DNA of 64,000 nucleotides from an uncultured Pseudomonadota bacterium (GCA_963836235.1 CAWIIP010000004.1:192001-256000); one strand, 5' to 3'; positions 1 to 53,966 are shown, counted from the stretch's first letter. The notes: generated by a model from the sequence alone, not told the origin. Made by a program: numbers and translations.

Positions 1-1326
1 CCATTAGGAAAAACTCTTTCGGGGGAAATGGTTCAATTGGATTTGTGGGGAAGGGAAACCGAAAATTGGAACGTCCTTGTGGTTGGTTCCTCGGGTACCG
101 GCAAGTCCTTCACCATTAACCAACTAATCATCAAGAACCTCGCCTTGAACCCTTACGTGATGATTATCGATAAATCCCAATCCTATAAAACACTCTGCCG
201 GTTAGCGGGTGGCCGTTACCTCAATTATGACTTGGAGAGTAAAAACCACCTAAATATCTTCGATTATCCCTTGGATGAAATAAAGGAGAAGGAGGGGGAG
301 ATCGACTCGGAACATATTTCCAGCATCATCATGTACTTGGGAGTAGTCCTCGCCAATATCAAGGAAAACCGAATTGAGGAAACGGAGGAATTGGACAAAG
401 CGCTGCTTCAGGATGCAGTCAAACAAACCTACCGGAATGCCATCGGTGAGAAAAGGGTGCCTCTTTTAAGCGACCTCAAGGAAACCCTTCTGAAGACAGC
501 AGACGACAAGAAGATTCCGGGTGAGTTCCAATACCTTTGCCGAAAACAGGCAGAAGTTTTGAAGCTCTTTACCGGGAAGGGAATGTACGCCAACCTGACG
601 GACCGGGAATCCACCGTAAAAGCGGATAACTCCTTTATTGTTTTTGATACTTCCGGTATCAGCGACAACGACAAGAAGGCGGTGGGGTTGGCCGTCTTCG
701 TGATATCAAACTACTGCCTTCTAAAAGCCAAGCAGAACAAGGAATTAAACCGGCTTTCCCAACTGGCAATGGATGAGTGCTGGTACTTGGCGCAATACCC
801 GGCTGGATTGGCTTTCCTTCTTCGTATCGCTAAGACCGCCCGGCATTTGAGGCTCCAGCCCATTTTCGCCACCCAGGAGATTGGGGAGTTTTTTGGAGTG
901 AAGGGCGTTGAAGCGATTTTAAAGAACACTTCCACCAAAATCCTTTTGAAGTTGGTTGGCGACGACATCGACCACGCCAAGGGCCTTTTACAACTCAACC
1001 CAAACCAAGTGGAAAAAGTCATGAACCTGCATTTGGTGAAGGGCGTCTATTCCCAAGCAATGATTCACCAAACCCTAAGACAGGGAATCGTGAACATTTA
1101 CCCAGATGAGTTGGCTTACCACATTGCAACGACCTATGGCCCAGAAGCGGCCATTCGTGACCTATATCTGGAAACCTATGCTCCCAATGAGGACCCGGTG
1201 GCGACCTTGGGTGCTATCGCCAAATGGATAGAGGACAAGGAAAACAATACGGTATTAAAACCCGCTTCAAAGGAAAAAGAAGGGAAACCCATTTCAATTA
1301 AACGAGACGAGGTTTTGATGAAATGA
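1..1326 (+). CDS. virB4: VirB4-like conjugation ATPase, 5'-truncated by window edge
   Basis: Frame open from base 1 (PLGKTLSGEMVQL..); Walker A GSSGTGKS, Walker B MDECW; matches C-terminal half of 47080-49647. Confidence 0.85.
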   Translation, partial: PLGKTLSGEMVQLDLWGRETENWNVLVVGSSGTGKSFTINQLIIKNLALNPYVMIIDKSQSYKTLCRLAGGRYLNYDLESKNHLNIFDYPLDEIKEKEGEIDSEHISSIIMYLGVVLANIKENRIEETEELDKALLQDAVKQTYRNAIGEKRVPLLSDLKETLLKTADDKKIPGEFQYLCRKQAEVLKLFTGKGMYANLTDRESTVKADNSFIVFDTSGISDNDKKAVGLAVFVISNYCLLKAKQNKELNRLSQLAMDECWYLAQYPAGLAFLLRIAKTARHLRLQPIFATQEIGEFFGVKGVEAILKNTSTKILLKLVGDDIDHAKGLLQLNPNQVEKVMNLHLVKGVYSQAMIHQTLRQGIVNIYPDELAYHIATTYGPEAAIRDLYLETYAPNEDPVATLGAIAKWIEDKENNTVLKPASKEKEGKPISIKRDEVLMK

Positions 1327-1919
1327 CAGAACCCAAAAAAGATGAAGGCCATTCCATTGTCGATGTCATCGAAGAGGAACCTAAAAAGAAGGGATACACC
1401 GGGAAGATTATTATCGGGCTCGTTGTTGTTCTAATCGGTTTGGGTTCCACCCTTTATTGGGGAAAAAGAGGACAGGTGGTGGAATCCAAAAATGATGTTT
1501 CTGGTATTACAGCCCAAAAGGGTAATCAGGACTCCCAATACCAGGATGTAACAGATTTCGCGGAAAAGTTCACAATCATGGCCTTCAATTTCAGTTACAG
1601 CGATATGAACAATCAAGTGGGTAAAGTGGCGGACCTCATGAGCGACAACATGATGTCCTATTACCAGGAGGCTTTCCTTGATCCCAAGTGGGTCGCCTTT
1701 CTTTCGGACAACAAGGCCTATGTTTCCTATCAGCAGATAGACCGGTCGAGCGTGGAAAACACAGATGGGACCCATTATTGGGTGAGGGTCATTGGAAAGA
1801 ACCTTTATATCTCGGATGCCAGGGGATTGGGCTCTCAGATCGAATTGCCTTTTCACATTGTCGTGGTGGTCAAGCGGGAGAACGGAAAACTTATAGTGAC
1901 TGATTTCCAGAGGTTATGA
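1323..1919 (+). CDS. VirB8/TcpC-like bitopic T4SS component
   Basis: Single N-terminal TM followed by an NTF2-like alpha/beta pattern (FAEKF..Y.D..); directly after virB4. Confidence 0.55.
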   Translation: MTEPKKDEGHSIVDVIEEEPKKKGYTGKIIIGLVVVLIGLGSTLYWGKRGQVVESKNDVSGITAQKGNQDSQYQDVTDFAEKFTIMAFNFSYSDMNNQVGKVADLMSDNMMSYYQEAFLDPKWVAFLSDNKAYVSYQQIDRSSVENTDGTHYWVRVIGKNLYISDARGLGSQIELPFHIVVVVKRENGKLIVTDFQRL

Positions 1920-3394
1920 ATATGGAAGAAAACCTATTGCAAATAAACCCTGAATTAGCCAAACGGTGCCTTCAATCCGCCCACCTATATATGGAAACCA
2001 ACCGGGATAAAGAAGCGTTGAAGCTTTTCGATGAGGTTTTGGCCAAGCACCAGCCCCAAAATGTTGAGGCACACCTTGAATCCGCCAAGATATTTGTCAA
2101 ATACAAACAACCCCATTCCATCTTGAAGGTGATTAACCGTCTTCACAACTTCTCCCCCAAAACCCCGGAAAGTCTCGTCCTGCTTGCCCGTGCCCAATAC
2201 CAATTGGGCAATTTCAGCGACTGCCAAGACTCATTGAAAGAGATTTTTACTTTGAAAAGGGATTTTCCTGAGGGCGTGGCCCTAGAGGCTGAGTTGTGTA
2301 TCCGAACCGGGAAATATGAGACCGCCGTGGAAAAGTTTGAATCCTTGAGCCTCCGTTTTCCAAAAAACTACAATTATTTAACTCTTTTGGCCGCATCCCA
2401 TTACGCCAGAGGCCAATACCACCGGACCATCACTCTTTGTACGACACTCATGCAAGCCGGAGTGAATGACAACAAGGTCAACCGCCTTTATGAATTGGCA
2501 AAAAAGAAAAAGAGAATCGAAGCTTTAGGGAAGTTAAAGAAAGTAAAGCCCCTTAAATGGTTATTCGCCCAACTCTTCGATCCATTTTTGGAAAAAGAAA
2601 TGAGAGCGGAATCCGAGAACCAGACCACCCAAGAAAACCTTGTAAACGAAACTTTGGTAGACCATCGCACAGGGCTCTTAAACGATAGGGCCGCCGTCCA
2701 GCAGATCCCGGCCCTTGCCGCAAGAAGAAAGAACCACTTTTACCTTTCGATGGCGGATATCGACTTCTTCAAGTCCTTCAATGACGTCCATTACAACCAC
2801 CAAGTCGGAAACGCCGTATTGAAAGCCTTGGCAAAGGCGGGTCAGAGCATTTTCACCAAAAACAATATCTGGCGTTACGGGGGTGAAGAAATTGTCTGGG
2901 TTTTCGACGGCACTGAGGAAGAGGCGGTCGAAAAGGCCGAACTATTCAGGAAGCATTGCGAAGAGAAGGTTTCGGATGAAGCCAATGAAATCATAAAGAA
3001 AGAAGAAATAAGACATTTTACCGATGGCTTTGACCACAAAAAGGATGACCAATTCATCATCCATTACCCGGTAACTATCAGCCAAGCCCTGGTTGAGTGG
3101 GGAGAGGACGGAACCAACTTGGAGAATATTTTGACGGCGGCGGACAACGGACTTTACGCGGCAAAGGAAAACGGAAGGAACACGGTGGTTTTCAGGGGTG
3201 CAATCAGGAGCGTTGGGGTTAAGCCCGTCAAATACACCCCGGAATTGTTGGCAATCCTTCATGACTTTTCTTTTAAGAAAAGTTCAACCGATTGGTGGGC
3301 TTACCAGAAGTCGGTTAGTGAGAAGAAGAAAGAAGAGGCTCTGGAATATGCGAGGAATACCCTAATCGAAAAGGAGGTCCCCAAAAAGAAATAG
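1916..3394 (+). CDS. TPR-repeat GGDEF (diguanylate cyclase-like) protein
   Basis: N-terminal TPR helices; DHRTGLLN, DIDFFKSFND, RYGGEEI, AADNGLYAAKENGRN motifs. Confidence 0.88.
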   Translation: MNMEENLLQINPELAKRCLQSAHLYMETNRDKEALKLFDEVLAKHQPQNVEAHLESAKIFVKYKQPHSILKVINRLHNFSPKTPESLVLLARAQYQLGNFSDCQDSLKEIFTLKRDFPEGVALEAELCIRTGKYETAVEKFESLSLRFPKNYNYLTLLAASHYARGQYHRTITLCTTLMQAGVNDNKVNRLYELAKKKKRIEALGKLKKVKPLKWLFAQLFDPFLEKEMRAESENQTTQENLVNETLVDHRTGLLNDRAAVQQIPALAARRKNHFYLSMADIDFFKSFNDVHYNHQVGNAVLKALAKAGQSIFTKNNIWRYGGEEIVWVFDGTEEEAVEKAELFRKHCEEKVSDEANEIIKKEEIRHFTDGFDHKKDDQFIIHYPVTISQALVEWGEDGTNLENILTAADNGLYAAKENGRNTVVFRGAIRSVGVKPVKYTPELLAILHDFSFKKSSTDWWAYQKSVSEKKKEEALEYARNTLIEKEVPKKK

Positions 3395-3430
3395 TTTATT
3401 TGGAAGTTAAATCAAAAAAGGAGAAATCAA

Positions 3431-3733
3431 ATGGCTTTAAAAATCAACGTTACGAGGATGTACCCCTATGAAGGGGAGAACACCAAGGCGTTCTTTGATG
3501 TGAAGGTTGGCATTTCGGGTTACGAATTCTTTTTCAATGATTTGACCCTAGTGAAGAAAAAGGAAGGGGATGGGTTATTCATAGGCTTCCCCTCCCGTCC
3601 CGGCAAAAAGGAGGGTGATTACTTCCACTTTTGTAACGCCAACAAGAAAGCAAAAGAGGAGATTGAGAAGGCGGCTATGGCGGAATTCAAAAAGAAAGCC
3701 AAGGGCAAGGAATCCGCCCCGGCTGGGAAATAA
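3431..3733 (+). CDS. SpoVG-like nucleic-acid-binding protein
   Basis: KAFFDV..., GLFIGFPSR, GDYF motifs typical of SpoVG; RBS AGGAG. Confidence 0.7.
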   Translation: MALKINVTRMYPYEGENTKAFFDVKVGISGYEFFFNDLTLVKKKEGDGLFIGFPSRPGKKEGDYFHFCNANKKAKEEIEKAAMAEFKKKAKGKESAPAGK

Positions 3734-3760
3734 CCAAAACCGTTTTTAGGGGAGGGGAGA

Positions 3761-4048
3761 ATGGATAGGAGAAAACCAGACCGCAGAAACCCAAATCAGG
3801 ATCAGCTCTTGTCTGACAAACAGGTTGCCCTGATGGCCGGGGTGCCGGTCAATACCGTGAGTTATTGGCGCTTGGCGGGTATGCTTCCGTTCGTGAAGCT
3901 CGGAAGGCATCCGAGGGTTTGGCTGTCCGTGTTCCAAAAAACATTCCACCAACCAAAATCAAATGGCCCTTGGGAACCATTGAGTGAAGGTGTTAATATA
4001 CAAACACAAAGTGCAGGTGGCATTAGGAGGAAACATGGCAAGACCTAA
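3761..4048 (+). CDS. Excisionase-like HTH_17/MerR-type DNA-binding protein
   Basis: LLSDKQVALMAGVPVNTVSYWRLAGMLPFVKLGRHPR; overlaps integrase start. Confidence 0.8.
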   Translation: MDRRKPDRRNPNQDQLLSDKQVALMAGVPVNTVSYWRLAGMLPFVKLGRHPRVWLSVFQKTFHQPKSNGPWEPLSEGVNIQTQSAGGIRRKHGKT

Positions 4049-5144
4049 TGTACACGGATTACCGCAACATCTTCGAAAGGATGTGGCGGGATACTTTTTA
4101 GAGTATTACTTAAAAGAAGGAGGAATAAAAACTAGGAGAAGGGTCCGATTGGGACACATTCCTTTGGTCCAAGCCAAAAAATTACTGGCCCAAAACATGG
4201 CTGAGATTGTCGAGGGCAAGTTTTTATCAAGCGAAAAGGCGAAAGTCACATTTGCCGAATCCGCTGATTCGTTTTTGGCCTATTCCAAAGCCAGGAAAAA
4301 AAGCCACAGGAACGATCCACCGATCGTATCCCGGTTCAAGGCTTTTTTTGGAAACCGGTCTTTGGAAAGTTTGACCCCTGACCTCGTGGAGGCCTATTTG
4401 ATCCAGAGGCAACGGGATGGACAATTGAACCATAAGGGGAAGCCCATTACGGGAACCAGTTTGAACAAGGAAATTGCCTGCCTCAAGACGATAGTTCGGC
4501 GGGCGATGCTCAATGGACAGATTGATCGCAATCCGATTTTCGGGGTCCGCAAGTACAAGGAAGTACCTAGGAATAGGACCTTGAACCCGGAGGAGTTCCA
4601 GAAGCTTTTTGAGATGGCTACTCCCCGGTTGCGACCGATTATCGCGTTGGGCTACTACACCGGAATGAGGTGTGGGGAGGTCCTTGGTTTGAAGTTTACT
4701 CAACTGGACTTCAAACACAAAATCCTAGTTTTGGAAGCGTTGGACACAAAGACCATGGAGAGGAGGGAAATTCCCTTAAGTGACGCCTTGATCGGGTTGC
4801 TTAGGCAGGTTCCCCCGACCCTGGGAAGCCCCTACGTTTTCACATACAAAGGGAAACCCATGAAGAGCATCAAACGGGCTTTTAAGTGGGCTTGCCGTAA
4901 AGCGGGGATCGACAACTTTAGGTTCCACGATCTCAGACATTGTATGGTCACGAATTTCAGGAAGGCGGGGGTAAGTGACAACGTAATCATGTCGATTTCG
5001 GGCCATAAGACCCATTCGGTGTTCAGGCGGTATGACCGGGTGGATCGGGATGACCGGCATGGTGCCCTTCAAAAAGTTGAAATTTTGATAGACACGAATA
5101 AGACACTCGTAGAAAATCAGTGTCCCTCAGAGGGAGCTAAGTAG
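4035..5144 (+). CDS. int: Tyrosine recombinase/integrase
   Basis: TGMRCGE (R), K, FHDLRH (HxxR), SGHK, RRY catalytic residues; ATG 4035 after AGGAGG; adjacent to att. Confidence 0.93.
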   Translation: MARPNVHGLPQHLRKDVAGYFLEYYLKEGGIKTRRRVRLGHIPLVQAKKLLAQNMAEIVEGKFLSSEKAKVTFAESADSFLAYSKARKKSHRNDPPIVSRFKAFFGNRSLESLTPDLVEAYLIQRQRDGQLNHKGKPITGTSLNKEIACLKTIVRRAMLNGQIDRNPIFGVRKYKEVPRNRTLNPEEFQKLFEMATPRLRPIIALGYYTGMRCGEVLGLKFTQLDFKHKILVLEALDTKTMERREIPLSDALIGLLRQVPPTLGSPYVFTYKGKPMKSIKRAFKWACRKAGIDNFRFHDLRHCMVTNFRKAGVSDNVIMSISGHKTHSVFRRYDRVDRDDRHGALQKVEILIDTNKTLVENQCPSEGAK

Positions 5145-5212: not shown

Positions 5213-5262
5213 CTTGTAAGCGGCAGGTCACCGGTCCGATTCCGGTCGCCAGCTCCATTTTT
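5213..5262 (+). repeat. att core, copy 1: 3' half of tRNA-Thr(TGT)
   Basis: CTTGTAAGCGGCAGGTCACCGGTCCGATTCCGGTCGCCAGCTCCATTTTT, identical to 53917-53966; anticodon loop, T-arm, CCA. Confidence 0.92.
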
Positions 5263-5526: not shown

Positions 5527-7371
5527 ATGAATACCGGGAATTTATTCAAGAAGATCGAGAGCCACACCCCCCCTCTCTTAGTCGGTTTTGCCACTTATTC
5601 GGGCCTTAAATTCATCCTAGAGGCCTTTGGGGTAATAGGTGTCTCCGTCAATCCTTTCGACACAATTTCGATCCTTTCCGTGGGTTTTCTCTACATGTTT
5701 GAGAAGCATGTCCGCTTGGACCACCTCTTGGCCTTAGCCCCCGCCGTCATTGCATTAGCATTTTGCCATGACTTTTTCGGGGTGTTGTTGGGGACGGATG
5801 GGTTTACAGGGGATGTAGTAATGGGTATTTCCATCCTCATTGGTTTTTGCGTTTATTTCATCCATTTCACAACGGAAAAAATTGCGGAACAATCGGCGGA
5901 ATCCCCAAAGGAGGAGAAGGGGAAATATCCCCTTTACCTTGATTCCGAGGATAAGTATTTCATCCCAACGGAAATGCTCAAATACCACGCAGAGGTTATT
6001 GGATCTTCCGGCACCGGAAAGACCAACATCTTCAATCACCTAATCGAGCAAGGCATCAAGAATGGGATTGGAATGTTTGTATTTGACGCGAAGTCTAACT
6101 ACAACAAACACATTCCATATTTCGCATCAAAATATGGGAGGCTCCATGACCTGAAATATTTTGATTTAGCCGATGTGAAGAGGAGTCAGACCTATAACCC
6201 TGATTTCAAGGATAAGCCGGACGAGGTTTTCAACGGTCTCATGAAGTCGTTATTTTATGGCCCCGTAAAAGAGGAATATTACAGGGACCAAGCAAGCGAA
6301 GTTTTAAGCAATCTGACAAACCTTCTTTTTAAGGAATTTACCCATGTCACAAGGATGGATTATCAGAACCTGATTTCAAACGAGATCAGATCGTTCAAGA
6401 CAATCCAATGGCTTGCCACGAAATACGAAGACACGGTTTCAGGAAAATACTTTTTAGAAAAATGGATGCACATGTCCGAAAAGGACAGGGAATTAAACCT
6501 ATCCGGCCTGACCAGCAAGCTTTCCAGATTCACCAGCCGGGAATGGTCGCCATTAATCAACACCCTAAATCCAGAGATCAAAATGAGGGACGTAGTCGAA
6601 AAACAGCAGATATTCTTATTTGGCACATCTTCCTTGGTGAACCAGGAGGATTCAAAACCAGTGATTATTTCGGCTTTGGTGGACTTGGCCGGTGTAATTG
6701 GAAGACGCCTTATTGAGAAGCCCCAAAAACCCTTTTTTGTCTTTTTGGACGAGTTCTACACCGCCGCATATCCAGGATTGAATGACCTAATATCCCTTGG
6801 ACGGGAGGCCAATGTTTGCTTTTTCTTGGCCCATCACAGTTTGGGCCAGCTTGGGGCGGTCAGTCAGGAGTTTAAGGACGACATATTAACGAATACGAAC
6901 CACAAGATCGTGATGAACATCACCGAAAAAGATACGGTGGATTTCTTCGCCTCCATATTCGGAACTAAGGTAACGAAAAAGGATGTTTATTCCTTTGATA
7001 CCAGATCAGCCCAGGCGAGGGGTAGGACTGAAAAGCCGGATGAGGAATTCATCATCCATCCCAATTACCTTAGGCTTATGAGGCGCGGGGAAGCTGTCTG
7101 TCGAATCGTTTATGTTACCGGTCCCAGGATATTTAAAATGAAACTCAAAGAAGTCAAAAGCCCTCCTGCCAGCTTTGATTATGTGGGCTGTGTTCCTACT
7201 AGGAACAATCATTTGAAGCCAAATGAATACAACAAGATCGTTGTTCCCAAAGTCGAAACAACCCCGAAATCCAAACCCAAAAAAGAGGGGGATCAGGTTC
7301 CTCCCACCAAATCCGTTCCTGAACCGAAACCCAAAACAAGTGGATTGAGCCACGGAGAAAATGCTTCCTAA
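5527..7371 (+). CDS. Type IV coupling protein (TraD/VirD4 family)
   Basis: N-terminal TMs; Walker A GSSGTGKT; FDAK; Walker B FLDEF; GREAN motif. Confidence 0.85.
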   Translation: MNTGNLFKKIESHTPPLLVGFATYSGLKFILEAFGVIGVSVNPFDTISILSVGFLYMFEKHVRLDHLLALAPAVIALAFCHDFFGVLLGTDGFTGDVVMGISILIGFCVYFIHFTTEKIAEQSAESPKEEKGKYPLYLDSEDKYFIPTEMLKYHAEVIGSSGTGKTNIFNHLIEQGIKNGIGMFVFDAKSNYNKHIPYFASKYGRLHDLKYFDLADVKRSQTYNPDFKDKPDEVFNGLMKSLFYGPVKEEYYRDQASEVLSNLTNLLFKEFTHVTRMDYQNLISNEIRSFKTIQWLATKYEDTVSGKYFLEKWMHMSEKDRELNLSGLTSKLSRFTSREWSPLINTLNPEIKMRDVVEKQQIFLFGTSSLVNQEDSKPVIISALVDLAGVIGRRLIEKPQKPFFVFLDEFYTAAYPGLNDLISLGREANVCFFLAHHSLGQLGAVSQEFKDDILTNTNHKIVMNITEKDTVDFFASIFGTKVTKKDVYSFDTRSAQARGRTEKPDEEFIIHPNYLRLMRRGEAVCRIVYVTGPRIFKMKLKEVKSPPASFDYVGCVPTRNNHLKPNEYNKIVVPKVETTPKSKPKKEGDQVPPTKSVPEPKPKTSGLSHGENAS

Positions 7372-10097: not shown

Positions 10098-10105
10098 ATT
10101 GAATA

Positions 10106-39457: not shown

Positions 39458-39576
39458 TAAAAATTTTTGAATAATTGAGAATTACCTCCAAGTCATTCGG
39501 GCAAAAACCATTAGAAAGCTCAAATAAAGCTTTCGGTTTAACGGGGGAGGCCCGCCCTGGACTTATGGAGGGTTAT

Positions 39577-40665
39577 ATGAAAAAGAATTCCGCTATCATT
39601 TTGGGAATATCGCTGGTCGTAATTTCCGCTTTTATTTGCTCAATAGGCTGTAAAAACAGCGGCCCTTCAACCCCTTACGATATTGGATTTACCCCAACCC
39701 CTGTCCGTATTTATGGGCCAGTTAATGCCTTTGTTGAGGATAAAGGGATTGCTGTCCCCAACCTGTTGGTTCAGGCGATACCCCCTTCCGGTGTGACAAT
39801 CTTCAGCCAATCCACCACGGCAAGCGGGATTGCAACCTTTAACCCGCCTTATCTTGAATTGGGGAATTGGACTTTTGTGGTTCCGGCCCAAACCCCGTTC
39901 CCCTATGCCCCTAGCACCATCACCATGCCCGTGTCAGTCGTCAATGAAACGGCCAACTTCAACACGGCGGGGGCTACAATTTATTTGACCCCGACTGTGC
40001 CGGAATCTTTCACTTCAACCAACCCCGGCTCCCCCTATACCTACAGCATGATTTACAGCCAGCCCGGAAATTTGTTCATTCCGGGAAAAATCGCCTTTTC
40101 CGGATTTCCAACAAATTGGAGCGCGTCTTACGGACCAGCGACGATTGGATATGGGAATTCCGACACCGGCTCCGTTACTGTTGTTGGTGTCAATTGTGTG
40201 GACAGGCAACCCAGTTTCGCAGTGACCGCTCTCGATTTGGAACCAACGCCTTATCCCCGCGCCAACAGTTCACCACAGACCATCACCAAAAGTTTCACAT
40301 CGACGGTCACCGTTACTTGGAACACGACTGGGTTGAATTCCGATTTCTGCAACAACGGAACTGCAATTGGAATCGTATATGGAACCCTTACTGTTTCAAC
40401 TTCCAATGCTTGTTCTTACGATGCCGTTGTTTCAGTTTCAATGAACGCGGGGAATTGTTGTTACAGCCAATTCCAGACACCCAATGGAAACGTCTCAGCC
40501 GCGAATTGTGGCGGGGGTGGAGTTAATTTTGGACCGGGGTCCTATAACTGCACTGTCCTGAGTGGTGCCACTTGGGGAGCCCTTAATTGTTCCTTCAACG
40601 GTGTCTCACATACCGTGAACGTTCCGACATCGGGTTCTGTCCAGCTTTTAAGCACAAGTTACTAA
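39577..40665 (+). CDS. Lipoprotein, beta-rich with Cys-rich C-terminus (adhesin-like)
   Basis: Signal peptide ending SIGC; Thr/Pro-rich Ig-like strands; ATG after GGAGG. Confidence 0.65.
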   Translation: MKKNSAIILGISLVVISAFICSIGCKNSGPSTPYDIGFTPTPVRIYGPVNAFVEDKGIAVPNLLVQAIPPSGVTIFSQSTTASGIATFNPPYLELGNWTFVVPAQTPFPYAPSTITMPVSVVNETANFNTAGATIYLTPTVPESFTSTNPGSPYTYSMIYSQPGNLFIPGKIAFSGFPTNWSASYGPATIGYGNSDTGSVTVVGVNCVDRQPSFAVTALDLEPTPYPRANSSPQTITKSFTSTVTVTWNTTGLNSDFCNNGTAIGIVYGTLTVSTSNACSYDAVVSVSMNAGNCCYSQFQTPNGNVSAANCGGGGVNFGPGSYNCTVLSGATWGALNCSFNGVSHTVNVPTSGSVQLLSTSY

Positions 40666-40677
40666 GGGGCCTGGATT

Positions 40678-41433
40678 ATGAAATATCTACCGGCACTTTT
40701 ATTGATTTGTTTGATTTATGGATGCGGAAAAGGCCCTTCTGGACCGACCGGGCCTCAAGGTTCCCCTGGTACGGGTATCCCTTCATTTCAATTGGAATTC
40801 GAGCAAGGGATATTTCCCGACGCCGGATATTCCGGAGTTGACACCCACTGGCTGGATGGAAGCAATCCCAATACAGCGCCGGGTACGGGGGAGATTGAAG
40901 TAGCCACCGGAACAACCACCTCGAATGTGGCTTTGGGGTTAGTGAGGTTCGACCTTTCTTATGGCATTCCATCAAACGCCACAATCACCGGCGCAAGTCT
41001 GGAATTAACAACCGAAACCGGTTCGATCCTTTCAGGCGGGACTTATGTTTTTGGCATCCATCAAGTCATCCAGCCACCTGCCGGGCAGGTGCCTTGGAAC
41101 GACTCAAGTACATGGAATGTTTTGGTAACCCCATATGGTTGGGACGGGGGGACCAGTTCTCCCGTTACGGCGGGGGCCGATTACAACTCGACCCCGATGG
41201 ACGCTGTGACTGTTACCGCCTCGCAGGTCAACGCAACCCAAATTCTCCTAGCTTGGAATATCACGCCTGCCCTTGCCCAGGTTTGGGTGAACAAAGCCAA
41301 TAACAATTACGGAGTTTTGATTTCGCCGGAACCAGAAATAAGCGGGTCGGTTTCAGGCTTTATTTCGTTTTGGGATAACACGGGGAACTCCCAACAAAAA
41401 CCAAAGATGATTGTTTCTTACACCATTCCTTGA
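40678..41433 (+). CDS. Lipoprotein with short collagen-like segment and DNRLRE/CBM96-like domain
   Basis: IYGC lipobox, GPSGPTGPQGSPG, LVRFDLS..IPSNATI..ASL, NNYGVLI, PKMIVSY. Confidence 0.7.
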   Translation: MKYLPALLLICLIYGCGKGPSGPTGPQGSPGTGIPSFQLEFEQGIFPDAGYSGVDTHWLDGSNPNTAPGTGEIEVATGTTTSNVALGLVRFDLSYGIPSNATITGASLELTTETGSILSGGTYVFGIHQVIQPPAGQVPWNDSSTWNVLVTPYGWDGGTSSPVTAGADYNSTPMDAVTVTASQVNATQILLAWNITPALAQVWVNKANNNYGVLISPEPEISGSVSGFISFWDNTGNSQQKPKMIVSYTIP

Positions 41434-41442
41434 GGTGGATAT

Positions 41443-42660
41443 ATGAAAAAGAGAATATCTATTTTTGTGGTCCTGATTTTATTTCATTCGGTGATGGCTT
41501 ATGCCAAGACAAAACCGAAAACCACCCCTACCCCAAGCCCAACTTCAACCCCGGAACCTAAGCCCCGGTGGGTCCCGCCACCCTATGTTGGCAACGACTC
41601 CAAAGTCCTCAATGCGACTGTTGCGGCCCATTACGAGAGTGCCGCTTCCGGGAACCTTGGCTATTCCTTATTCGACCTTTCTGGTATCCGAAAACTCGAC
41701 GAGAACGACGTTTCGGCCCAAGGGACCGTCCGGTTCATGAAATATTTTTCCAGTTCGGATGATGTAGGGGAACTCCAATTGAGGGAAGCCAATCTTTCCC
41801 TTTCCGAGCCCTGGATTGAAGTAAGGTTGGGCCGGATGGATTTGTCCGATATCGCAAGTACCACCCACTTTTTTGGGCGTTATCCCTTGATGGGTTTGAG
41901 GCGATTGGACGGGATCAAGGTTTATATCCCTTTCAAGTTTTTCTTCGGAGTTGAGGATTACAAGAGCGTTTCAAGCCCGCCGACATCGTTAAGCTTTTTT
42001 TATTTTCCAACCCTTCTTTCGGCCCAGGACGCTGTCATTGACGGTTCCCAAGGTTATTTCATGGGACAGGCCCGCATGAAACTCAATTTCGGGGATATTC
42101 GGACAGTCCTTCTTTTCAACATGGGGGCCAGCTCGTCGGATGATTTTGAATACTCCTCCATGAGTGGGAATCCTGCCTACTCCATTTGTGGGGAGGCCAA
42201 CTTCAGCAGGGATTACACCCTTTACTTCGAATACGGGGTTCAGGATTCCGCCAGGTCGGGCGATACGAGCGCATTCACATTTGGGGGAAAAGCCGAGCAT
42301 CTATTTACCTTCGACTTCCTCTCCCTCGACCAAGTCATTCTGGAAGTCCAAGTTCCGATTGCCAACAATCCCAATAATCCATTTACAGGCGGGAACGGCA
42401 TTGATCCGGCATCCGCAGTACTCCCTCAGACCGCTTTGTATGGGAAGGCGCGGATTCGAATTCGGTCTATTTTCATTGATTTCAACATCACTGATTCTTT
42501 GGGCGATTTCACCTTCGCTCGGTTGAATCCCAACAACATCAACACACCTTTACCCATGCCGGTGGGTGGGGGGAATGAGACGGACGGCCTGGAAATCCCG
42601 CTTCTCTCATCCGGTTACAACAACTACGCCTTCAGCGTGGATACGGGGGTTCAGTTTTGA
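41443..42660 (+). CDS. Putative outer-membrane beta-barrel protein
   Basis: Signal peptide, amphipathic strands, LREA..EVRLGR porin-like segment, C-terminal VDTGVQF. Confidence 0.6.
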   Translation: MKKRISIFVVLILFHSVMAYAKTKPKTTPTPSPTSTPEPKPRWVPPPYVGNDSKVLNATVAAHYESAASGNLGYSLFDLSGIRKLDENDVSAQGTVRFMKYFSSSDDVGELQLREANLSLSEPWIEVRLGRMDLSDIASTTHFFGRYPLMGLRRLDGIKVYIPFKFFFGVEDYKSVSSPPTSLSFFYFPTLLSAQDAVIDGSQGYFMGQARMKLNFGDIRTVLLFNMGASSSDDFEYSSMSGNPAYSICGEANFSRDYTLYFEYGVQDSARSGDTSAFTFGGKAEHLFTFDFLSLDQVILEVQVPIANNPNNPFTGGNGIDPASAVLPQTALYGKARIRIRSIFIDFNITDSLGDFTFARLNPNNINTPLPMPVGGGNETDGLEIPLLSSGYNNYAFSVDTGVQF

Positions 42661-43163
42661 AAGGGGCATTTCTTTTCATCATTTTTTGGTTTGTTTCCAG
42701 GGCCTTGGCCCAGGACGGCAACCCATTCACGGACGTCCGGGACAGGGACCAATGGTCTATAGAACAGGTTATGGAGCATAAAGCCCCCGTGGATTCATGG
42801 GATGGAAGTTCAAATGAAGGAGGCACCCACCGGGGAAAAAGACCTGCTCCAATTGCTCCCCCAACCGCGACTCCTTTTCAAACTAAATCTTACAACTTCC
42901 AAACCGAAACAGACGAGGCCAAGGTCGGCGCATCCATTACGGATAACGGTTCCAATTTCACCATAGATATTTCCTGTGACCAAACGATCCAGGGTTGGCT
43001 TTTGAAATTCCAATCAACCAAGCAGGTTTTCCTGAAAGGGGGGGCGCCCACGGATAACCCTTACAAATGCCGGATCGCGGTGGACCGGCCCTATATCAGG
43101 GACTTTGGACTGACCGTTTATGTCACCCAAGACAGTGATCCGGCTTTTATCCAACTCTTTTAG
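42657..43163 (+). CDS. Secreted hypothetical protein
   Basis: Signal peptide ALA-Q; overlaps upstream stop. Confidence 0.55.
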   Translation: MKGAFLFIIFWFVSRALAQDGNPFTDVRDRDQWSIEQVMEHKAPVDSWDGSSNEGGTHRGKRPAPIAPPTATPFQTKSYNFQTETDEAKVGASITDNGSNFTIDISCDQTIQGWLLKFQSTKQVFLKGGAPTDNPYKCRIAVDRPYIRDFGLTVYVTQDSDPAFIQLF

Positions 43164-43172
43164 GCGGTAAAG

Positions 43173-43622
43173 ATGGAAAACCAAATACAGAAGTCGGAAA
43201 ACTTAAAGACTTTTCATCCTTCATTTTATCAATGTACGCCCGTGCTTTTTCTCCCCTTTCCGTTGTTTCTTTTTGTCCTCTTGGGAGTCCGGCTTTATTA
43301 CATCCTAATGCTGTTTTGGTTCATGGAAATGTCGTTTCTTTTATTTATCTGGGTTTACCTCACAACCACTCTCTACGTCATCAGGCCCGACCGAATTGAA
43401 ATCAAAACCGGGATATTCGTTAAGCGGTCAAGAACCGTCCCTTTCGACCAAATCATAAATATCACCTGCAAACAGAGCATTGCCCAAAGGCTTTTTAGGA
43501 TTGGGGACATTTTCATAGACACTCCCGGAGGGAAACCTTTTGAGTTGGCTTTGGCGGGGGTCGAGAGACATGAAGAGATGGCGGAATTTCTATTTGCCTT
43601 GAAAAAAAGAGGCAATCCATGA
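43173..43622 (+). CDS. Membrane protein with bacterial PH (bPH_2/YdbS-like) domain
   Basis: 2 TMs then Y.I..DRIEIKTGIF..QSIAQRLFRIGDI.I.T. Confidence 0.8.
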   Translation: MENQIQKSENLKTFHPSFYQCTPVLFLPFPLFLFVLLGVRLYYILMLFWFMEMSFLLFIWVYLTTTLYVIRPDRIEIKTGIFVKRSRTVPFDQIINITCKQSIAQRLFRIGDIFIDTPGGKPFELALAGVERHEEMAEFLFALKKRGNP

Positions 43623-44485
43623 AGGTCATACTTCTTTGTTTTTTGATGTTTAGTGGGGCTTGCCAACTGGTTTTGGCCGACACAACTTCCGACGATCCTA
43701 AAACGGAAGAGGCGTTGAGGAACAATGTCATCGACTTTAGGGATTGGTTGATGAAACAACTTTCCCAATTTCCCAAAGCCGACCCGCATAAAACAGGGAT
43801 GATCCTAAGAAATTATGCATCTCTTCCAAGAAAGAACCGGGTCATCAATGCCAACCAATACAACCAAGCGGCCAAATCAGATTGGGTGAAAGGCCAAGTT
43901 TTGCAGGGCCTTTCCACCTTGAGCCAACAGCTTGCCAATACCGCAGGGACGGCTTTAGCTCCTCAAAGCGCAAGCCAGCTTCAACAATACTCGACTCAAT
44001 TGGGTCAAAGTAACGATCCCCAATTCCAACAGGTTGGAACTCTTTACTCCCAGGAAGCCCAGGCCTTACAAGCAGGGAACACCCAGGGGGCCAACCAAGC
44101 GGCCAGCCAGGTCGCCGCCGTTCCCCAGCCCAATGTCCCGCCAGGATACCAACCCACCCAAAACGAAACATCACTGGCCGCGACCCTTAACCAGATCACC
44201 GGAAGCCTTATCGGTGCGGTCGTTGAGGCAGTTATCGCCATTTATGGCGGACCGGTTGCGGCCTCCCTGTTTTCACCGGCAATTATGTCGATTTTTGGGG
44301 GTGGGCAGAATACCGGAAGTGCCCTAGCAACAGCGCCGAACCCCGCAACGGCGCTTAACACGGGGGGAGTCAATGTCGCACAAACGGGAGGGGGAGCGTT
44401 GATGCAACAGTTGGGTAGTGTGAATGTCAAACCGCTTCAACCCCAAAATTCCGCAAATGCCGGTGCCGCACCACCGGCCCAATAA
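43619..44485 (+). CDS. Secreted Gln/Ala/Gly-rich protein (possible VirB5-like/tip protein)
   Basis: Signal peptide, helical Q-rich body, hydrophobic C-terminal segment; position in T4SS operon. Confidence 0.45.
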   Translation: MKVILLCFLMFSGACQLVLADTTSDDPKTEEALRNNVIDFRDWLMKQLSQFPKADPHKTGMILRNYASLPRKNRVINANQYNQAAKSDWVKGQVLQGLSTLSQQLANTAGTALAPQSASQLQQYSTQLGQSNDPQFQQVGTLYSQEAQALQAGNTQGANQAASQVAAVPQPNVPPGYQPTQNETSLAATLNQITGSLIGAVVEAVIAIYGGPVAASLFSPAIMSIFGGGQNTGSALATAPNPATALNTGGVNVAQTGGGALMQQLGSVNVKPLQPQNSANAGAAPPAQ

Positions 44486-44508
44486 ATATCAATGATCGGA
44501 GAAATTAA

Positions 44509-44871
44509 ATGAAAAAAAGAAACTTTATCAATTCTATAAAGCAGGTAGGGATGACGGGCTATCTCCTCATTCTTGCGGATAAGGCCAATGCACAAGCGAT
44601 TACCAGTATGCCGGAACTTTCCCCGATAAAACTGATGATCCTTTTTGTACTGGATGCTTATGGGGTTTGGAAACTATTGCAATGCGTTAAGAACGTCTTG
44701 GATCACCTCGCCGATTCAAGTAAGGGTGATCCGGCGGCTAAAGATCGGATTTGGGGAAGCGTTCTGGCTTTCATCGGGATACTTATGGTGGGGGTAATGG
44801 TCAATGTTTTAATTCTCAAAGCGGGAGAATTTGGGGCGAGGCCGGTTAGTTCTGTCCTGTCCGGGAATTGA
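44509..44871 (+). CDS. VirB2/TrbC-like pilin
   Basis: Leader ending ANA-Q then two hydrophobic helices. Confidence 0.55.
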   Translation: MKKRNFINSIKQVGMTGYLLILADKANAQAITSMPELSPIKLMILFVLDAYGVWKLLQCVKNVLDHLADSSKGDPAAKDRIWGSVLAFIGILMVGVMVNVLILKAGEFGARPVSSVLSGN

Positions 44872-44878
44872 TCCATTC

Positions 44879-46792
44879 ATGAAAAGAGTTCTTCAACTCC
44901 CACCCCTAATTTGTTTTTGCCTTTTGACCTCGACTTCCTGGGGGGTCTCGGTGTTATCGACCGATAGCGGCCCCACTTCACAGACAATCGAGCAGGGAGT
45001 TTCGGCAGGGATTTTCGATTCCATGACGCAACACGCGGGGGATTGGGTCGCCAATGGGATGAACAAAATCGGGAATTGGGCTTTGCAAACTTTATTTGCG
45101 ATTTACGATAAATATATTGGAACTTTCCTGATTATGATCCCCGATTTGGCATCTCCCCAAACCTATACCGCATTAACCAATGGCTCCCTTAATACATCCG
45201 CCAATGCAGTCCAAGTCGTTCTAAATATTCTAAAAATTACCAGTGGGACAGGACTTTTCATCCTGATAGTAGGGTTTGTTATAGATACGGGCCAAAGGTC
45301 ATCCGGTTTGTGGGATAGGTTTGTCGATGGATCAACCGTGATTGGGTTCGTTGCGGCTTTCCTTTTTCTTTTCGCTTGGCCGACCGTTCATTCCTACCTG
45401 ACCAATGGGATAACGGCGATGGGTTATTACATTTATAACCAGAATACTTTGCGCACTTCCGGCGTTTTGGAGGGCATCCAGAATATTGACCTAAATTCTG
45501 ATGGTGTAGCGACTTCCGTTCAATTGGCCCAATTTGATTTCCGGGGAAATTTCATCACGATTCAGGGAATCATTTGGAATCTTATTTATCTCATTTCCAT
45601 TTCCTTGGTCGTCTTGGGTTTCTACAACTGTTATTCGGCGGTATCCGCGGGGGATTCCCAGAAAGGCAGTTATAAATTTTTTCAGGCCGTTGCCGGAATC
45701 ATCCTGATTCTCGGTGTTCCCACAATCATCCATGTTTTTATCGACAAAGGAGCCGACGCTTTGGGGACCCAACAAGCCATTCCGGGGCAATCCCTTACTC
45801 CTTTTTCCATGCAAGGATTGGTTCAGGATAACGGCGTTCAGTATCCCCAACAACAGGGGCAAGCCCCGCCCAACATTGGAACAGCAGGCAATAGTACCCA
45901 AGTTCCTGGAACAAGCCGTTTAGCGATATTTTCTGCTGGCCTTGTGAAATGCGGAGTTTCTATTTGGGGACTCATCGTCTGCTTTTCGGTGGTCTTCGCA
46001 AAGTTTTTCCAAATTTTGAATCTTTGGGTCATGTTCATCCTCGGTCCCGTTTTCATCGGGTGCCTTGGGCACCCGGCCACTTCCTCTATTTTTTGGGGCG
46101 CGGCCCGGTACTTTTTAAAACTCATCCTTTATTCCGTAATTTGGGCAATCACCCTTGTCGGCCTCTATTTGATTCCAAACATCAATTGGGGTGTGGAGAC
46201 AATTGGTGTGAACAGTCTCTTGACGGCAGTCGCCGTACTTGCCGGTCTTCAAATGATCGCCAACGTCCAAGAATTCGCATCCCTTTTCACAACCTTTTCA
46301 GGCGCAAACCTGAGAGGCGAAGGTTACAAGGAATCCTACCGGGATACCAAGGCAGCCCTTGGGTCGGCCAATTCATTACGCCTGGGAACATTTGGAGCCC
46401 TTCAAGGCGCATCGGGTGAGACAAGTCAAGGGTTGGCCGCCGCCACGGGTGCGGCATTCGGGTCAATTATTCCCGGTGTGGGGACGGCTAGTGGTGCCCT
46501 GGCAGGGCAAAAGACGATGAAAGGTTTTAACTCTTTAGCCAAATTGGGGTCTATGGGTGGCAGGGGAAAGGGTGAGGAAGAATCGGACAATCCGATTTCA
46601 AAAGCCCTTAAAAAGTTTTCCGGCAATGTAATTTCCAAGAATCTTTCTAAGGAAGACCAACAAAACAAGTCCTACTCGGTGGATGAAAGAAAAAAACGCC
46701 AATTGGTCAGTGAATACGCAAAAAAACTCCAAGGCAAGAAACCAAATCCGAATTCAGGGTATCAGGGACCAAAAGGGAAGAGGAGTGTCTAA
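44879..46792 (+). CDS. VirB6/TrbL-like polytopic membrane protein
   Basis: Multiple TMs, ILGPVFI..L..P.T motif, Gly/Ala-rich then basic tail. Confidence 0.7.
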   Translation: MKRVLQLPPLICFCLLTSTSWGVSVLSTDSGPTSQTIEQGVSAGIFDSMTQHAGDWVANGMNKIGNWALQTLFAIYDKYIGTFLIMIPDLASPQTYTALTNGSLNTSANAVQVVLNILKITSGTGLFILIVGFVIDTGQRSSGLWDRFVDGSTVIGFVAAFLFLFAWPTVHSYLTNGITAMGYYIYNQNTLRTSGVLEGIQNIDLNSDGVATSVQLAQFDFRGNFITIQGIIWNLIYLISISLVVLGFYNCYSAVSAGDSQKGSYKFFQAVAGIILILGVPTIIHVFIDKGADALGTQQAIPGQSLTPFSMQGLVQDNGVQYPQQQGQAPPNIGTAGNSTQVPGTSRLAIFSAGLVKCGVSIWGLIVCFSVVFAKFFQILNLWVMFILGPVFIGCLGHPATSSIFWGAARYFLKLILYSVIWAITLVGLYLIPNINWGVETIGVNSLLTAVAVLAGLQMIANVQEFASLFTTFSGANLRGEGYKESYRDTKAALGSANSLRLGTFGALQGASGETSQGLAAATGAAFGSIIPGVGTASGALAGQKTMKGFNSLAKLGSMGGRGKGEEESDNPISKALKKFSGNVISKNLSKEDQQNKSYSVDERKKRQLVSEYAKKLQGKKPNPNSGYQGPKGKRSV

Positions 46793-47083
46793 ATGGCTAT
46801 TCCTTTAGAAAAAGAATCCAAAATGTGGGGTCTCTTTTATACCTCCGATTTTAACAAATTGATGTTTGCCATTATCGGCAACGCCCTTGCCTTCATGGTG
46901 TTTTTCATTTTTTGGGGCCTTGAAGGCGCATTAGTCCTTTTCTTCGCAACCATGATCCTCGTGACCACTTACTACGTCATGAAGAGTTTTTGGCCCGAAA
47001 AATACTTTGAAAACATCATCCGTTACCACAACGAACCAAAACAATATTTTCCCGGCGGGGAAGCAAGCGAGTTTGAGAAATGA
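46793..47083 (+). CDS. VirB3/PrgI-like membrane protein
   Basis: Small 2-TM protein overlapping virB4 start; E.K.WG and PKQY motifs. Confidence 0.6.
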   Translation: MAIPLEKESKMWGLFYTSDFNKLMFAIIGNALAFMVFFIFWGLEGALVLFFATMILVTTYYVMKSFWPEKYFENIIRYHNEPKQYFPGGEASEFEK

Positions 47084-49647: not shown

Positions 49648-50243
49648 CGGAACCGAACGAAAAAGATGATTTGAAATTCTTGGAAAAGTTGGATGAGGAA
49701 CCGAAGAAATCTGGTTACACCCCCGCGATTCTTGTCGCTATTGCGTTTGTTGGGCTTGGAATCGCGACGACTCTTTTATGGGGAAGAACGAAGATTTTGA
49801 ATTCCCCTAAAACCGACGTATCGAACACAACGGATCAACAAGCGGTAAGCCAGGAGGCTCAATATTCCGACATCATAAACTTCGCCGAAAAATTCACAAT
49901 CATGGTTTTCAACGTGAACTATACCGATATCAACCACCAGGAAGACAAAGTGGCAAACCTTATGAGCGACAACATGATGTCTTACTACCAGGATGCTTTT
50001 CTTGACCCTAAATGGATTGCCTTCATTACAGACAATAAGGCCTATGTGACCTACCAGGGAATTGAACGGTCAACGGTCGAGAACACCGATGGAACCCACT
50101 ATTGGGTCCGGGTGATTGGTAAATGCCTCTACAACTCCGATACCAGAGGGTTTGGCTCCCAGATTGAATTGCCGTTTCACCTGGTAGTTGTCGTCAAGAA
50201 GGACAACGGAAAACTAATCATTACGGATTTTCAAAGGTTATAG
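49644..50243 (+). CDS. VirB8/TcpC-like protein
   Basis: Paralog of 1323-1919. Confidence 0.55.
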   Translation: MTEPNEKDDLKFLEKLDEEPKKSGYTPAILVAIAFVGLGIATTLLWGRTKILNSPKTDVSNTTDQQAVSQEAQYSDIINFAEKFTIMVFNVNYTDINHQEDKVANLMSDNMMSYYQDAFLDPKWIAFITDNKAYVTYQGIERSTVENTDGTHYWVRVIGKCLYNSDTRGFGSQIELPFHLVVVVKKDNGKLIITDFQRL

Positions 50244-50245
50244 CG

Positions 50246-50590
50246 ATGGAAGATCTTATTTTACGGATTAATCCTCAAATTGCTCGGCGCTACCTGCAAG
50301 CGGCCAATTTTTACTTTGTGACCGATAGTTATCTTGATGCTTTGAAAAAATTTGAAGGCCTTTTGGTTGGACACGAAAAGGAAGGGTATTCCGAAACGCC
50401 TTGGATATATGCCAAGTTCAAAAAGCCTAACCTCGTTTTAAAAACCATAAATCGAATCAACGAATTCTTTCCAACCTTCACAAAAAGAATTGCCTTTGTC
50501 GCTAGAGCCCAATTTTTACTTGGGATTTACCTGTTTTATGTCAAAGACGACCACGGAAAGTTAATCATCACGGATTTTAAAAGGCTTTGA
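50246..50590 (+). CDS. Chimeric ORF: TPR-GGDEF N-terminus fused to VirB8-like C-terminus
   Basis: Starts MEDLILRINPQIARR (cf MEDNVLQINPELARR); ends KDDHGKLIITDFKRL (cf KKDNGKLIITDFQRL). Confidence 0.7.
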   Translation: MEDLILRINPQIARRYLQAANFYFVTDSYLDALKKFEGLLVGHEKEGYSETPWIYAKFKKPNLVLKTINRINEFFPTFTKRIAFVARAQFLLGIYLFYVKDDHGKLIITDFKRL

Positions 50591-52105: not shown

Positions 52106-52408
52106 ATGGGCTTAAAAGTCAGGATTACCAGGATGTATCCGTATGACGGGGAACACACGAAGGCTTTTGTGGGGGCCAAGGTCCTAATATCCGGGCGTGT
52201 CTTTGGTTACAACGAATTGACACTTGTGAAAAAGAAGGAAGGCAATGGTTTGTTTCTTGGTCTTCCCTCAAGACCCGGAAGACAGGAGGGGGAATACCAC
52301 GACATTTGTTATATGGACCCGAACACTCGGAAGGAAATTGAAAAAATCGCCATTTTGGAATACGAAAAAAAGGTAAAGGAAAACAAAACCTCGGAAAAAC
52401 AGGATTAA
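52106..52408 (+). CDS. SpoVG-like protein
   Basis: GLFLGLPSR..GEYHDICY. Confidence 0.72.
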   Translation: MGLKVRITRMYPYDGEHTKAFVGAKVLISGRVFGYNELTLVKKKEGNGLFLGLPSRPGRQEGEYHDICYMDPNTRKEIEKIAILEYEKKVKENKTSEKQD

Positions 52409-53911: not shown

Positions 53912-53966
53912 GCCGCCTTGTAAGCGGCAGGTCACCGGTCCGATTCCGGTCGCCAGCTCCATTTTT
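53912..53966 (+). repeat. att core, copy 2: tRNA-Thr(TGT) 3' fragment including full anticodon arm
   Basis: GCCGC-CTTGTAA-GCGGC anticodon arm, T-arm, CCA; no 5' acceptor strand upstream. Confidence 0.92.

Follow-up and report, generated by a model that had tools for sequence, protein, structure and literature searches.

Nucleotide cyclases of the GGDEF family on mobile elements, and a tie between them and conjugation, are already in print. The diguanylate cyclases DgcK and DgcL are encoded by integrative and conjugative elements (ICEs) of the SXT/R391 group (Bordeleau et al. 2010, as cited in PMC4542580 and PMC5812530), GGDEF genes on transmissible plasmids are reported to raise biofilm formation and the rate of conjugation (Madsen et al. 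2018, as cited in PMC10333796), and modules for cyclic di-GMP (c-di-GMP) are described beside trb genes on ICEs of Acidithiobacillus (PMC6416229). Such genes are usually treated as cargo that alters the behaviour of the host. Here, a stretch of 64,000 nt (referred to as the window; GCA_963836235.1, CAWIIP010000004.1:192001-256000), deposited as DNA of an uncultured Pseudomonadota bacterium, was analysed. It carries the end of one ICE and the whole of a related second one, each of which encodes, at its right-hand end, a protein with TPR and GGDEF domains, a SpoVG-like protein, an excisionase (Xis) beginning with an arginine-rich tag, and a tyrosine integrase (Int). In this ICE lineage, which belongs to an uncultured, peat-associated candidate phylum, the cyclase gene was found to be a conserved gene of the transfer-excision backbone.

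As with DgcK and DgcL, the protein in question is an ICE-encoded GGDEF enzyme that would add to the second-messenger pool of its host. According to the sources cited, the genes for DgcK and DgcL lie in variable cargo hotspots, whereas the present gene is fixed between VirB4 and xis-int, and its product has a TPR input domain and an asparagine in the base-reading position of the active site. With the plasmid-borne GGDEF proteins and the Acidithiobacillus ICEs (PMC10333796, PMC6416229) it shares the location of a cyclase on a conjugative element and a tie to conjugation, either shown or proposed. In the passages describing those plasmids and ICEs, however, the proteins are PAS/GAF/EAL composites accompanied by PilZ effectors, whereas on the present ICE neither PilZ nor EAL was matched, and the cyclase stands apart as an isolated sequence clade.

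A preliminary description of this DNA, made from the sequence alone, had proposed that the ICE makes its own second messenger and that Xis reads it through the tag, coupling excision to mating readiness, and had stated that no ICE regulated in this way was known. This statement was too broad as far as GGDEF genes on ICEs and plasmids and their proposed link to conjugation are concerned. It held for the receptor, as no excisionase described as a c-di-GMP receptor was found in literature searches, which likewise gave no description of the backbone position of the cyclase gene, of the asparagine variant, or of the tagged excisionase. The system bears on the question of donor-state signalling by the conjugative element itself, on what a GGDEF protein of the asparagine type produces, and on whether a short Arg/Asp tag of an excisionase binds DNA or a nucleotide.

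Position of the TPR-GGDEF Gene in the ICE Backbone

Both ICEs end in the gene order VirB4, p199 (a membrane protein of 198 or 199 residues), TPR-GGDEF, SpoVG-like, Xis, and Int. The open reading frames (ORFs) of the module were present in both copies, including the second one reported at 50594-53848; the coordinates of the individual features are given in Table 1. Between 39475 and 53848, 16 genes on the same strand follow one another with gaps of no more than 58 nt. Overlaps of 4 nt within the gene string include those of VirB4 with p199, of p199 with the GGDEF gene (in copy 1, where p199 thus overlaps both of its neighbours), and of xis with int. This tight string, together with the recurrence of the order elsewhere, bears out the earlier claim that the GGDEF gene is embedded in the core operon between the genes of the type IV secretion system (T4SS) and xis-int.

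The order VirB4-p199-GGDEF-SpoVG-like-Xis-Int was found in six of 13 reference-genome loci, and in 11 of 21 metagenome loci xis was immediately preceded by the GGDEF gene and/or the SpoVG-like gene. When 99 genomes of the phylum were scanned, the GGDEF clade was detected in 12, all of them from the window's own family (11 of the 30 other genomes there and none of the 68 elsewhere), with up to seven matches per genome. At every locus with enough downstream sequence (26/26), the GGDEF gene was followed by a SpoVG-like gene. In a large protein collection, the clade comprised 46 clusters at 65–99% identity to copy 1, and the next matches were ordinary GGDEF proteins at 36% identity or less. The genes for TPR-GGDEF and the SpoVG-like protein are fixed backbone genes between VirB4/p199 and xis-int in a lineage from one bacterial family.

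The SpoVG-like protein was assigned from matches to SpoVG (PF04026) lying just below the cut-off of 29.6 bits (Table 1), a weak match to NF009749, and feature matches in a protein atlas, at 0.92, to clusters carrying PF04026. A literature search covering titles and abstracts only gave no SpoVG protein that binds c-di-GMP or another cyclic dinucleotide. In some related ICEs, two tandem SpoVG-like genes were observed, one resembling copy 1 and the other copy 2 (L001, 9295-9955; L003, 9300-9879).

Active Site of the TPR-GGDEF Protein

The GGDEF family (PF00990) was matched with 67.6 bits by copy 1 and 69.0 bits by copy 2, against a cut-off of 23.8 bits, and several TPR families were matched as well. 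The match to TIGR00254 reached 81.5 bits. Both window copies carry the signature GGEEI. In an alignment to solved cyclases, including 6zxm, the metal-binding Asp strand, a base-pocket Asn, Arg-x-GGEE, and the phosphate-holding Lys and Arg were all kept. Within the clade, GGEE was present in 46/46 clusters, the D-x-D strand and the K...R pair were retained, and the last residue of the signature was Ile, Leu, Met, or Val. Catalytic residues were invariant or nearly so in the 46 clusters, and the same was true of six full-length relatives, the most distant being 58% identical. The GGEE signature strand is followed by about 20 inserted residues.

The inhibitory RxxD site (I-site), situated five residues before the GGDEF signature, is optional in the family. 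No such site was found in the clade, the alignment of the 46 clusters having no Arg or Asp in the columns concerned. Since no signal peptide or membrane segment is evident, the protein is probably cytoplasmic. From the residues kept and lost, we infer TPR-GGDEF to be an active cyclase that is not inhibited by its product and whose base preference is uncertain.

At the guanine-reading position, canonically Asp, the residue was Asn in 46/46 clusters of the clade and Asp in 74/74 of the next-best GGDEF proteins. In PMC6456294, the Asp pairing with the Watson-Crick face of guanine is described as driving GTP specificity, with Ser in its place leading to the cGAMP-making Hypr enzymes; Asn at this position is not discussed in the section concerned. 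Neither did a literature search give any paper pairing 'GGDEF' with 'D344N'. Hypr enzymes such as GacA (PMC6456294) are similar to the present clade in having a natural substitution of the base-reading Asp. As described there, they combine Ser or Thr with GGDE[F/Y], whereas the present clade combines Asn with GGEE[I/L/M/V] and does not fall within the Hypr type.

Given the Asn, c-di-GMP is not assured as the product. The suggestion that the ICE makes a nucleotide signal of its own is reasonable in view of the intact catalytic residues. In one chromosomal GGDEF protein of the host (G000:C2:283687-284166), of the ordinary kind, the base-reading residue is likewise Asn, combined with GGEEM. The variant thus extends beyond the ICE clade, and Asn alone is no proof of a new product.

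The Arginine Tag of Xis

The two N-terminal extensions that had been read from the window, MDRRKPDRRN in copy 1 and MSERRSGDRRN in copy 2, were both exact. As HTH_17, the helix-turn-helix (HTH) family concerned, starts at residue 16-17, the extension measures about 15 residues. Xis of copy 2 scored 34.2 bits with HTH_17 and 30.5 bits with TIGR01764, above the respective cut-offs of 27 and 28.8 bits, while Xis of copy 1, 64% identical to it, stayed under the cut-off of HTH_17 with 22.1 bits. The matches of the integrases to Phage_integrase amounted to 84.7 bits for copy 1 and 99.4 bits for copy 2. In both copies, xis overlaps the start of int, and the pairing of Xis with Int is kept in related loci. 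A strong Shine-Dalgarno stretch was observed 5–9 nt upstream of each Xis ATG.

Conservation was assessed in an alignment of 48 Xis sequences, consisting of copy 1 and 47 database clusters, with copy 2 among the clusters. The four Arg of the tag were at least 90% conserved, and a basic C-terminal tail was conserved as well. Two Arg pairs 3–4 residues apart were present in 43 of the 47 clusters. The tag is real and translated, and it exceeds what chance would give. Further figures were counted by eye among 40 distinct tagged Xis. The tag consists of two Arg pairs, usually each preceded by Asp or Glu; an acidic residue stands before the first pair in 37/40 and before the second in 35/40. The spacer between the pairs was three residues long in 33 and four in the remaining seven. 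RRxxD was present in 22 sequences and RRxxE in seven, with neither in 11.

Across about 35 loci, the codons of the tag Arg switch freely between the CGN and AGR families, which indicates selection on the protein and not on the DNA. An origin of the tag at the DNA level, as a repeat or an operator lying under the codons, was ruled out on these grounds.

A search of 1.84 billion representatives with Xis yielded 1,262 matches at E ≤ 0.001, the best 150 of which were examined. Among these, the tag was present in eight of 71 small matches and missing from 14 of 16 matches that share the HTH signature of the family. As such sisters mostly lack it, the tag marks one sub-clade. In common with the excisionase family (HTH_17, TIGR01764), the present Xis is a small protein of winged-helix type encoded just upstream of a tyrosine integrase gene, which it overlaps; it differs in its conserved tag and basic C-terminal tail, which more distant members lack. 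The Xis profile also matched proteins of 200–1,396 residues (P0065–P0195) with 2 to 25 tandem HTH stretches of the excisionase type, P0074 having 25 stretches in 1,396 residues.

Occurrence of the Tag With and Without the Cyclase

The co-occurrence of tag and cyclase, proposed as a check in the preliminary description, was determined in pooled loci (L001–L070) after identical sequences had been collapsed; four loci were untestable. A locus was classed as lacking the module when its upstream sequence extended for at least 700 nt and tblastn (E ≤ 1e-5) placed neither a GGDEF nor a SpoVG-like match on the same strand within 3 kb. No association was found. Of 25 distinct Xis that have the module upstream, 24 carried the tag, as did all 16 distinct Xis lacking the module. 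The untagged one, L049, appears to be a frameshifted form of a tagged relative. Varied genes precede the cyclase-less Xis (Fic, RadC, AbiE toxin-antitoxin, transposase, helicases, coupling protein). At L014, 5.3 kb of upstream sequence contained no module, yet the Xis encoded there is 84% identical to copy 1.

The window's genome has six Xis-Int pairs, all of them tagged, and only two ICE cyclases. The other four pairs (L037–L040; at about 508.3, 1185.4, and 1373.6 kb on C2 and at about 272.1 kb on C5) have the 4-residue spacer in their tags, and no GGDEF match lies within 100 kb of them. Relatives carry up to eight Xis per genome. In 11 genomes with the Xis family, no GGDEF of the clade was detected at E ≤ 1e-60 with this query. 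Tagged Xis occur in at least five of these genomes, of which four (G050, G056, G061, and G068) are 93–99% complete and one (G062) 80%; G066 and G073 are ambiguous in this respect because a SpoVG-like gene is present.

The tag is a property of an entire clade of Xis-Int modules, which move between different elements whether or not a cyclase is present. The claim that Xis reads a messenger made by the ICE was not borne out by these comparative data, the tag being equally common where the GGDEF gene is lacking, and an Xis that reads a messenger is considered decidedly doubtful.

Comparison of the Tag with c-di-GMP-Binding Motifs

That Arg-rich motifs can bind c-di-GMP, as stated in the preliminary description, is confirmed in print. 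According to the passages on CleD in PMC7382256, a peptide of 19–35 residues derived from this protein binds an intercalated dimer of c-di-GMP through DRR-x11-[R/K]RxxD and two tyrosines, and deletion of single residues in the spacer markedly weakens binding. Measured against that account, the Xis tag is also a short, linear, unstructured Arg/Asp stretch, and it holds both [R/K]RxxD and DRR in either window copy. In CleD, however, DRR comes first and the 11-residue spacer wraps the ligand, whereas in the Xis tag the order is reversed and the two elements are fused through one shared Asp. Two aromatic residues of CleD stack on the guanines, whereas both window copies are devoid of aromatic residues ahead of the HTH; in many Xis homologs, one Tyr follows the tag. 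The stretch in CleD is C-terminal to a receiver domain, and the tag of Xis is N-terminal to the HTH.

PilZ domains combine an RxxxR loop with [D/N]xSxxG in a beta-barrel. There was no PilZ match in Xis, where RxxxR is found only in tags with the three-residue spacing, and neither a second motif nor a barrel was detected.

The host genome (3.97 Mb, 99.4% complete) contains 16 GGDEF, five EAL, and 15 PilZ matches. Both ICEs are free of EAL and PilZ matches; HD-GYP and other receptor families were not searched for. Rfam at gathering scores gave only SAM-I/IV in the window, with no c-di-GMP or cGAMP riboswitch. With GGDEF, EAL, and PilZ proteins present in the host and no EAL or PilZ match on the ICEs, a product made by the ICE would enter an existing network.

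Possible Roles of the Cyclase and the Tag

The reading favoured here is that an active ICE cyclase marks the donor state through receptors other than the tag, and that the tag is a basic arm. Taken as a whole, it is given about an even chance. TPR-GGDEF would be a nucleotide cyclase that escapes feedback by its product and is made at any time when the transfer operon is on. The dinucleotide formed, either c-di-GMP or a variant, would mark the donor state and would act through receptors other than the Xis tag. The simplest output would be a switch to a sessile, mating-friendly state, as reported for plasmid-borne GGDEF proteins, because the host alone has its 15 PilZ matches. The tag would most likely serve as a basic arm that contacts DNA, or Int, during assembly of the excisive complex.

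Several observations weigh against this reading. The acidic residues of the tag are odd for a pure DNA-binding arm, and the tag holds DRR and [R/K]RxxD elements like those of CleD (PMC7382256, CleD passages). Three untagged Xis (G045, G047, and G074) occur without a cyclase, and every cyclase-bearing ICE seen has a tagged Xis, a pattern that fits an Xis reading the messenger of its own ICE but is accounted for just as well by shared ancestry. Since c-di-GMP is also supplied by the host, a tag without a nearby cyclase may still read a ligand. Finally, the Asn at the base-reading position is left unexplained by a plain c-di-GMP model.

The original proposal, in which the ICE cyclase makes c-di-GMP at transfer readiness and binding by the Xis tag couples excision to mating readiness, appears highly improbable. 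Cyclase and xis do lie in one tight gene string, and all 24 intact Xis downstream of a cyclase are tagged; the tag fuses the [R/K]RxxD and DRR elements that bind the intercalated dimer in CleD (PMC7382256), and its four Arg, invariant in tagged Xis, match the four guanines of this dimer. However, the tag occurs in 16/16 distinct Xis without a cyclase, in four further pairs of the genome, and in at least five genomes in which no GGDEF of the clade was detected. Its elements are reversed, share one Asp, and are not 11 residues apart, while in the account of CleD (PMC7382256) single-residue deletions in the spacer cost the peptide much of its affinity. The spacing of the Arg pairs varies (three residues in 33/40, four in 7/40), RRxxD is limited to 22/40 tagged Xis, an aromatic residue before the HTH is missing from both window copies, and the cyclase has Asn at its guanine-reading site. 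The same mismatches of the motif apply if the whole tagged clade senses the cellular c-di-GMP pool from any source, to which the cyclase-bearing lineage would add its own input. A clade-wide tag under protein-level selection, a host with a full c-di-GMP network, and the nanomolar affinity for c-di-GMP that short linear Arg/Asp peptides can reach (PMC7382256) all speak for such sensing. It is nevertheless rated as unlikely, given that 14 of the 16 sisters with the HTH signature have no tag, which is thus dispensable for basic function, and that the literature searched describes no excisionase as a c-di-GMP receptor. Similar doubt attaches to a combined form, in which the fused [R/K]RxxD-DRR tag would be a minimal and portable cyclic-dinucleotide arm gating excision throughout the clade, and one lineage would have fixed the Asn-type cyclase as a supply, possibly of something else than c-di-GMP. 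Were the tag to bind a dinucleotide, Xis would become the first example of an excision factor controlled by a second messenger, and the tag a very small natural ligand-binding module.

The remaining explanations concern the enzyme. The Asn-type GGDEF protein may make another product, an adenine-containing or other purine dinucleotide, to be read by a dedicated partner on the ICE, the SpoVG-like protein, of a nucleic-acid-binding kind, being the first candidate. This would agree with Asn being invariant in the clade and Asp in its nearest neighbours, with the change of product that accompanies a changed base-reading residue in Hypr enzymes (PMC6456294), with the adjacent SpoVG-like gene in 26/26 testable loci, and with the lack of a PilZ or EAL match on the ICE. 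One ordinary host GGDEF also has Asn, however, and the adjacency of the GGDEF and SpoVG-like genes is confounded with their shared backbone. Titles and abstracts gave no cyclic-dinucleotide binding by SpoVG, and no dinucleotide riboswitch was found in the window at Rfam gathering scores; such a variant product with an ICE-borne reader is regarded as unlikely. It is very unlikely that the GGDEF domain is not a working cyclase and that the protein acts as a TPR adaptor or scaffold of the transfer machinery. Its Pfam GGDEF scores are the weakest in the genome (about 52 bits, compared to 59–178 for the others), about 20 residues are inserted after the GGEE strand, and the last signature residue is Ile, not Phe, all of which would suit a scaffold. 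Catalytic positions that are all invariant in a clade diverged to 58–65% identity, on the other hand, are hard to explain without catalysis.

Organisation of the Two ICEs

The region containing copy 1 of the module is the right-hand end of an ICE, and two colinear ICEs of one lineage are arranged in tandem at tRNA-Thr(UGU). The presence of two ICEs had been claimed before and was supported by attachment (att) repeats of 50 nt at tRNA-Thr(UGU) as well as by colinear gene content. Of ICE1, 65,425 bp long as a whole, the window includes the last 5.3 kb, and ICE2 (about 48.7 kb) is included entirely.

Each int gene in the window is followed by an identical 50-nt stretch (Table 1). The repeat occurs three times in the whole genome, all on one contig, and its first copy lies within an intact tRNA-Thr(TGT), 65 kb upstream of the ICE1/ICE2 junction and outside the window. 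ARAGORN found no tRNA in the window itself, the intact tRNA-Thr being upstream of it. The three repeats, with the first inside the intact tRNA gene, indicate that ICE1 and ICE2 are inserted in tandem at the 3' end of this gene.

Proteins shared by ICE1 and ICE2 are 56–96% identical and include the coupling protein, a conserved 270-residue protein, ArdC, the T4SS block, GGDEF, SpoVG-like, Xis, and Int. DNA identity was 69.5% between 1882-5306 and 50553-54009, and 75.4% between 1-1929 and 48322-50253. The features that identify an ICE were found in the form of a coupling protein, VirB4, VirB6, an integrase, and att repeats at a tRNA gene. VirB4 of copy 2 matches TraG P-loop and AAA_10. No relaxase family was detected among 45 ORFs of ICE2 with Pfam, several conserved ORFs being without a family, for example 7390-8202 and 20187-21998. 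One DNA contig (run X2), on its short side and from a relative, skips 50021-50592, which means that relatives without the insert of the 114-residue ORF exist.

Table 1. Positions of the module genes, att repeats, and transfer genes in the window.
Feature	Coordinates	Strand	Remarks
VirB4-type ATPase of ICE1, C-terminal part	28..1326	+	About 75% DNA identity to copy 2; gene runs off the start of the window
p199, copy 1, membrane-anchored protein of 198 residues, without a family	1323..1919	+	No Pfam match; syntenic in related loci
TPR-GGDEF, copy 1, 492 residues	1916..3394	+	TPR at about residues 1-180, helical linker, GGDEF at about 245-425
SpoVG-like, copy 1, 100 residues	3431..3733	+	27.4 bits, under cut-off
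Xis, copy 1, 95 residues, excisionase-type HTH	3761..4048	+	Arg tag at residues 2-9
Tyrosine integrase, copy 1	3984..5144	+	ORF opens at GTG 3984; likely start ATG 4035 (alignment with copy 2)
att repeat, 50 nt, ICE1/ICE2 junction	5213..5262	+	Identical to the 3' part of tRNA-Thr(UGU)
Type IV coupling protein, first gene of ICE2	5527..7371	+	Left end of ICE1 carries a counterpart with 83% identity
T4SS gene block of ICE2	39475..50243	+	TrbL/VirB6 44831-46792, VirB4 47080-49647, p199 49644-50243
ORF of 114 residues, copy 2 only	50246..50590	+	Repeats part of the TPR N-terminus, joined to the last residues of p199
TPR-GGDEF, copy 2, 490 residues	50594..52066	+	Pfam GGDEF; alignment to relatives
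SpoVG-like, copy 2	52106..52408	+	27.9 bits, under cut-off
Xis, copy 2, 91 residues	52467..52742	+	Arg tag at residues 3-10; stop overlaps int start by 4 nt
Tyrosine integrase, copy 2	52739..53848	+	Phage_integrase match
att repeat, 50 nt, right end of ICE2	53917..53966	+	Followed by chromosomal DNA, G+C about 0.54

Expression Hints and Cargo of ICE2

When positions 47000-54400 were compared with contigs from three peat RNA libraries, matches to int of copy 2 at 99% or more were obtained, and in one run the match also covered xis. The contigs of each of the three runs start at 52727-52729, just ahead of the beginning of int, and no loose end was reported there. A promoter-like site (52679-52708), which has an extended -10 element, ends 19–21 nt upstream of these starts. 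This gives a weak hint of an int promoter inside xis. The contigs represent small shares of the libraries and possibly DNA, and they show neither transcription nor silence of the uncovered GGDEF and T4SS genes. Loose contig ends at 53911-53966 derive from tRNA genes of other organisms and carry no information on excision.

Promoter and terminator sites were not enriched over shuffled sequences (10 compared to 18.2 expected and 18 compared to 24.3, respectively; in a second scan, 3 compared to 5.9 and 11 compared to 9.2), so that they say nothing firm about operon structure. The PHROGs database gave only unnamed GGDEF-like families and generic excisionase families.

ICE2 carries cargo of defence and repair types. 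Adjacent genes for proteins with a metallo-beta-lactamase fold, a ThiF/E1-like domain, and a prokaryotic JAB peptidase (9018-12503) look like a ubiquitin-like conjugation module or one of defence type. A UmuD-like S24 peptidase is paired with a UmuC-like polymerase at 22182-23889, and the ArdC anti-restriction gene is located at 25964-26845. The SAM-I/IV riboswitch (17893-18001; 62.7 bits, Rfam cut-off 41.1) lies directly upstream of genes for a TPR protein (18023-19315) and a protein of 5'-nucleotidase type (19346-19816), an unusual pair to stand behind such a riboswitch.

An intergenic stretch of ICE2 with higher G+C (24005-24472) contains imperfect inverted repeats at 24005-24129 (74% identity, on itself) and 24436-24472 (92%), as well as a direct repeat of 24243-24327 with 24315-24399. 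Just outside ICE2, a PEP synthase-like gene is present in two overlapping frames (55375-56217 and 55823-57793), which suggests a frameshift or an assembly error.

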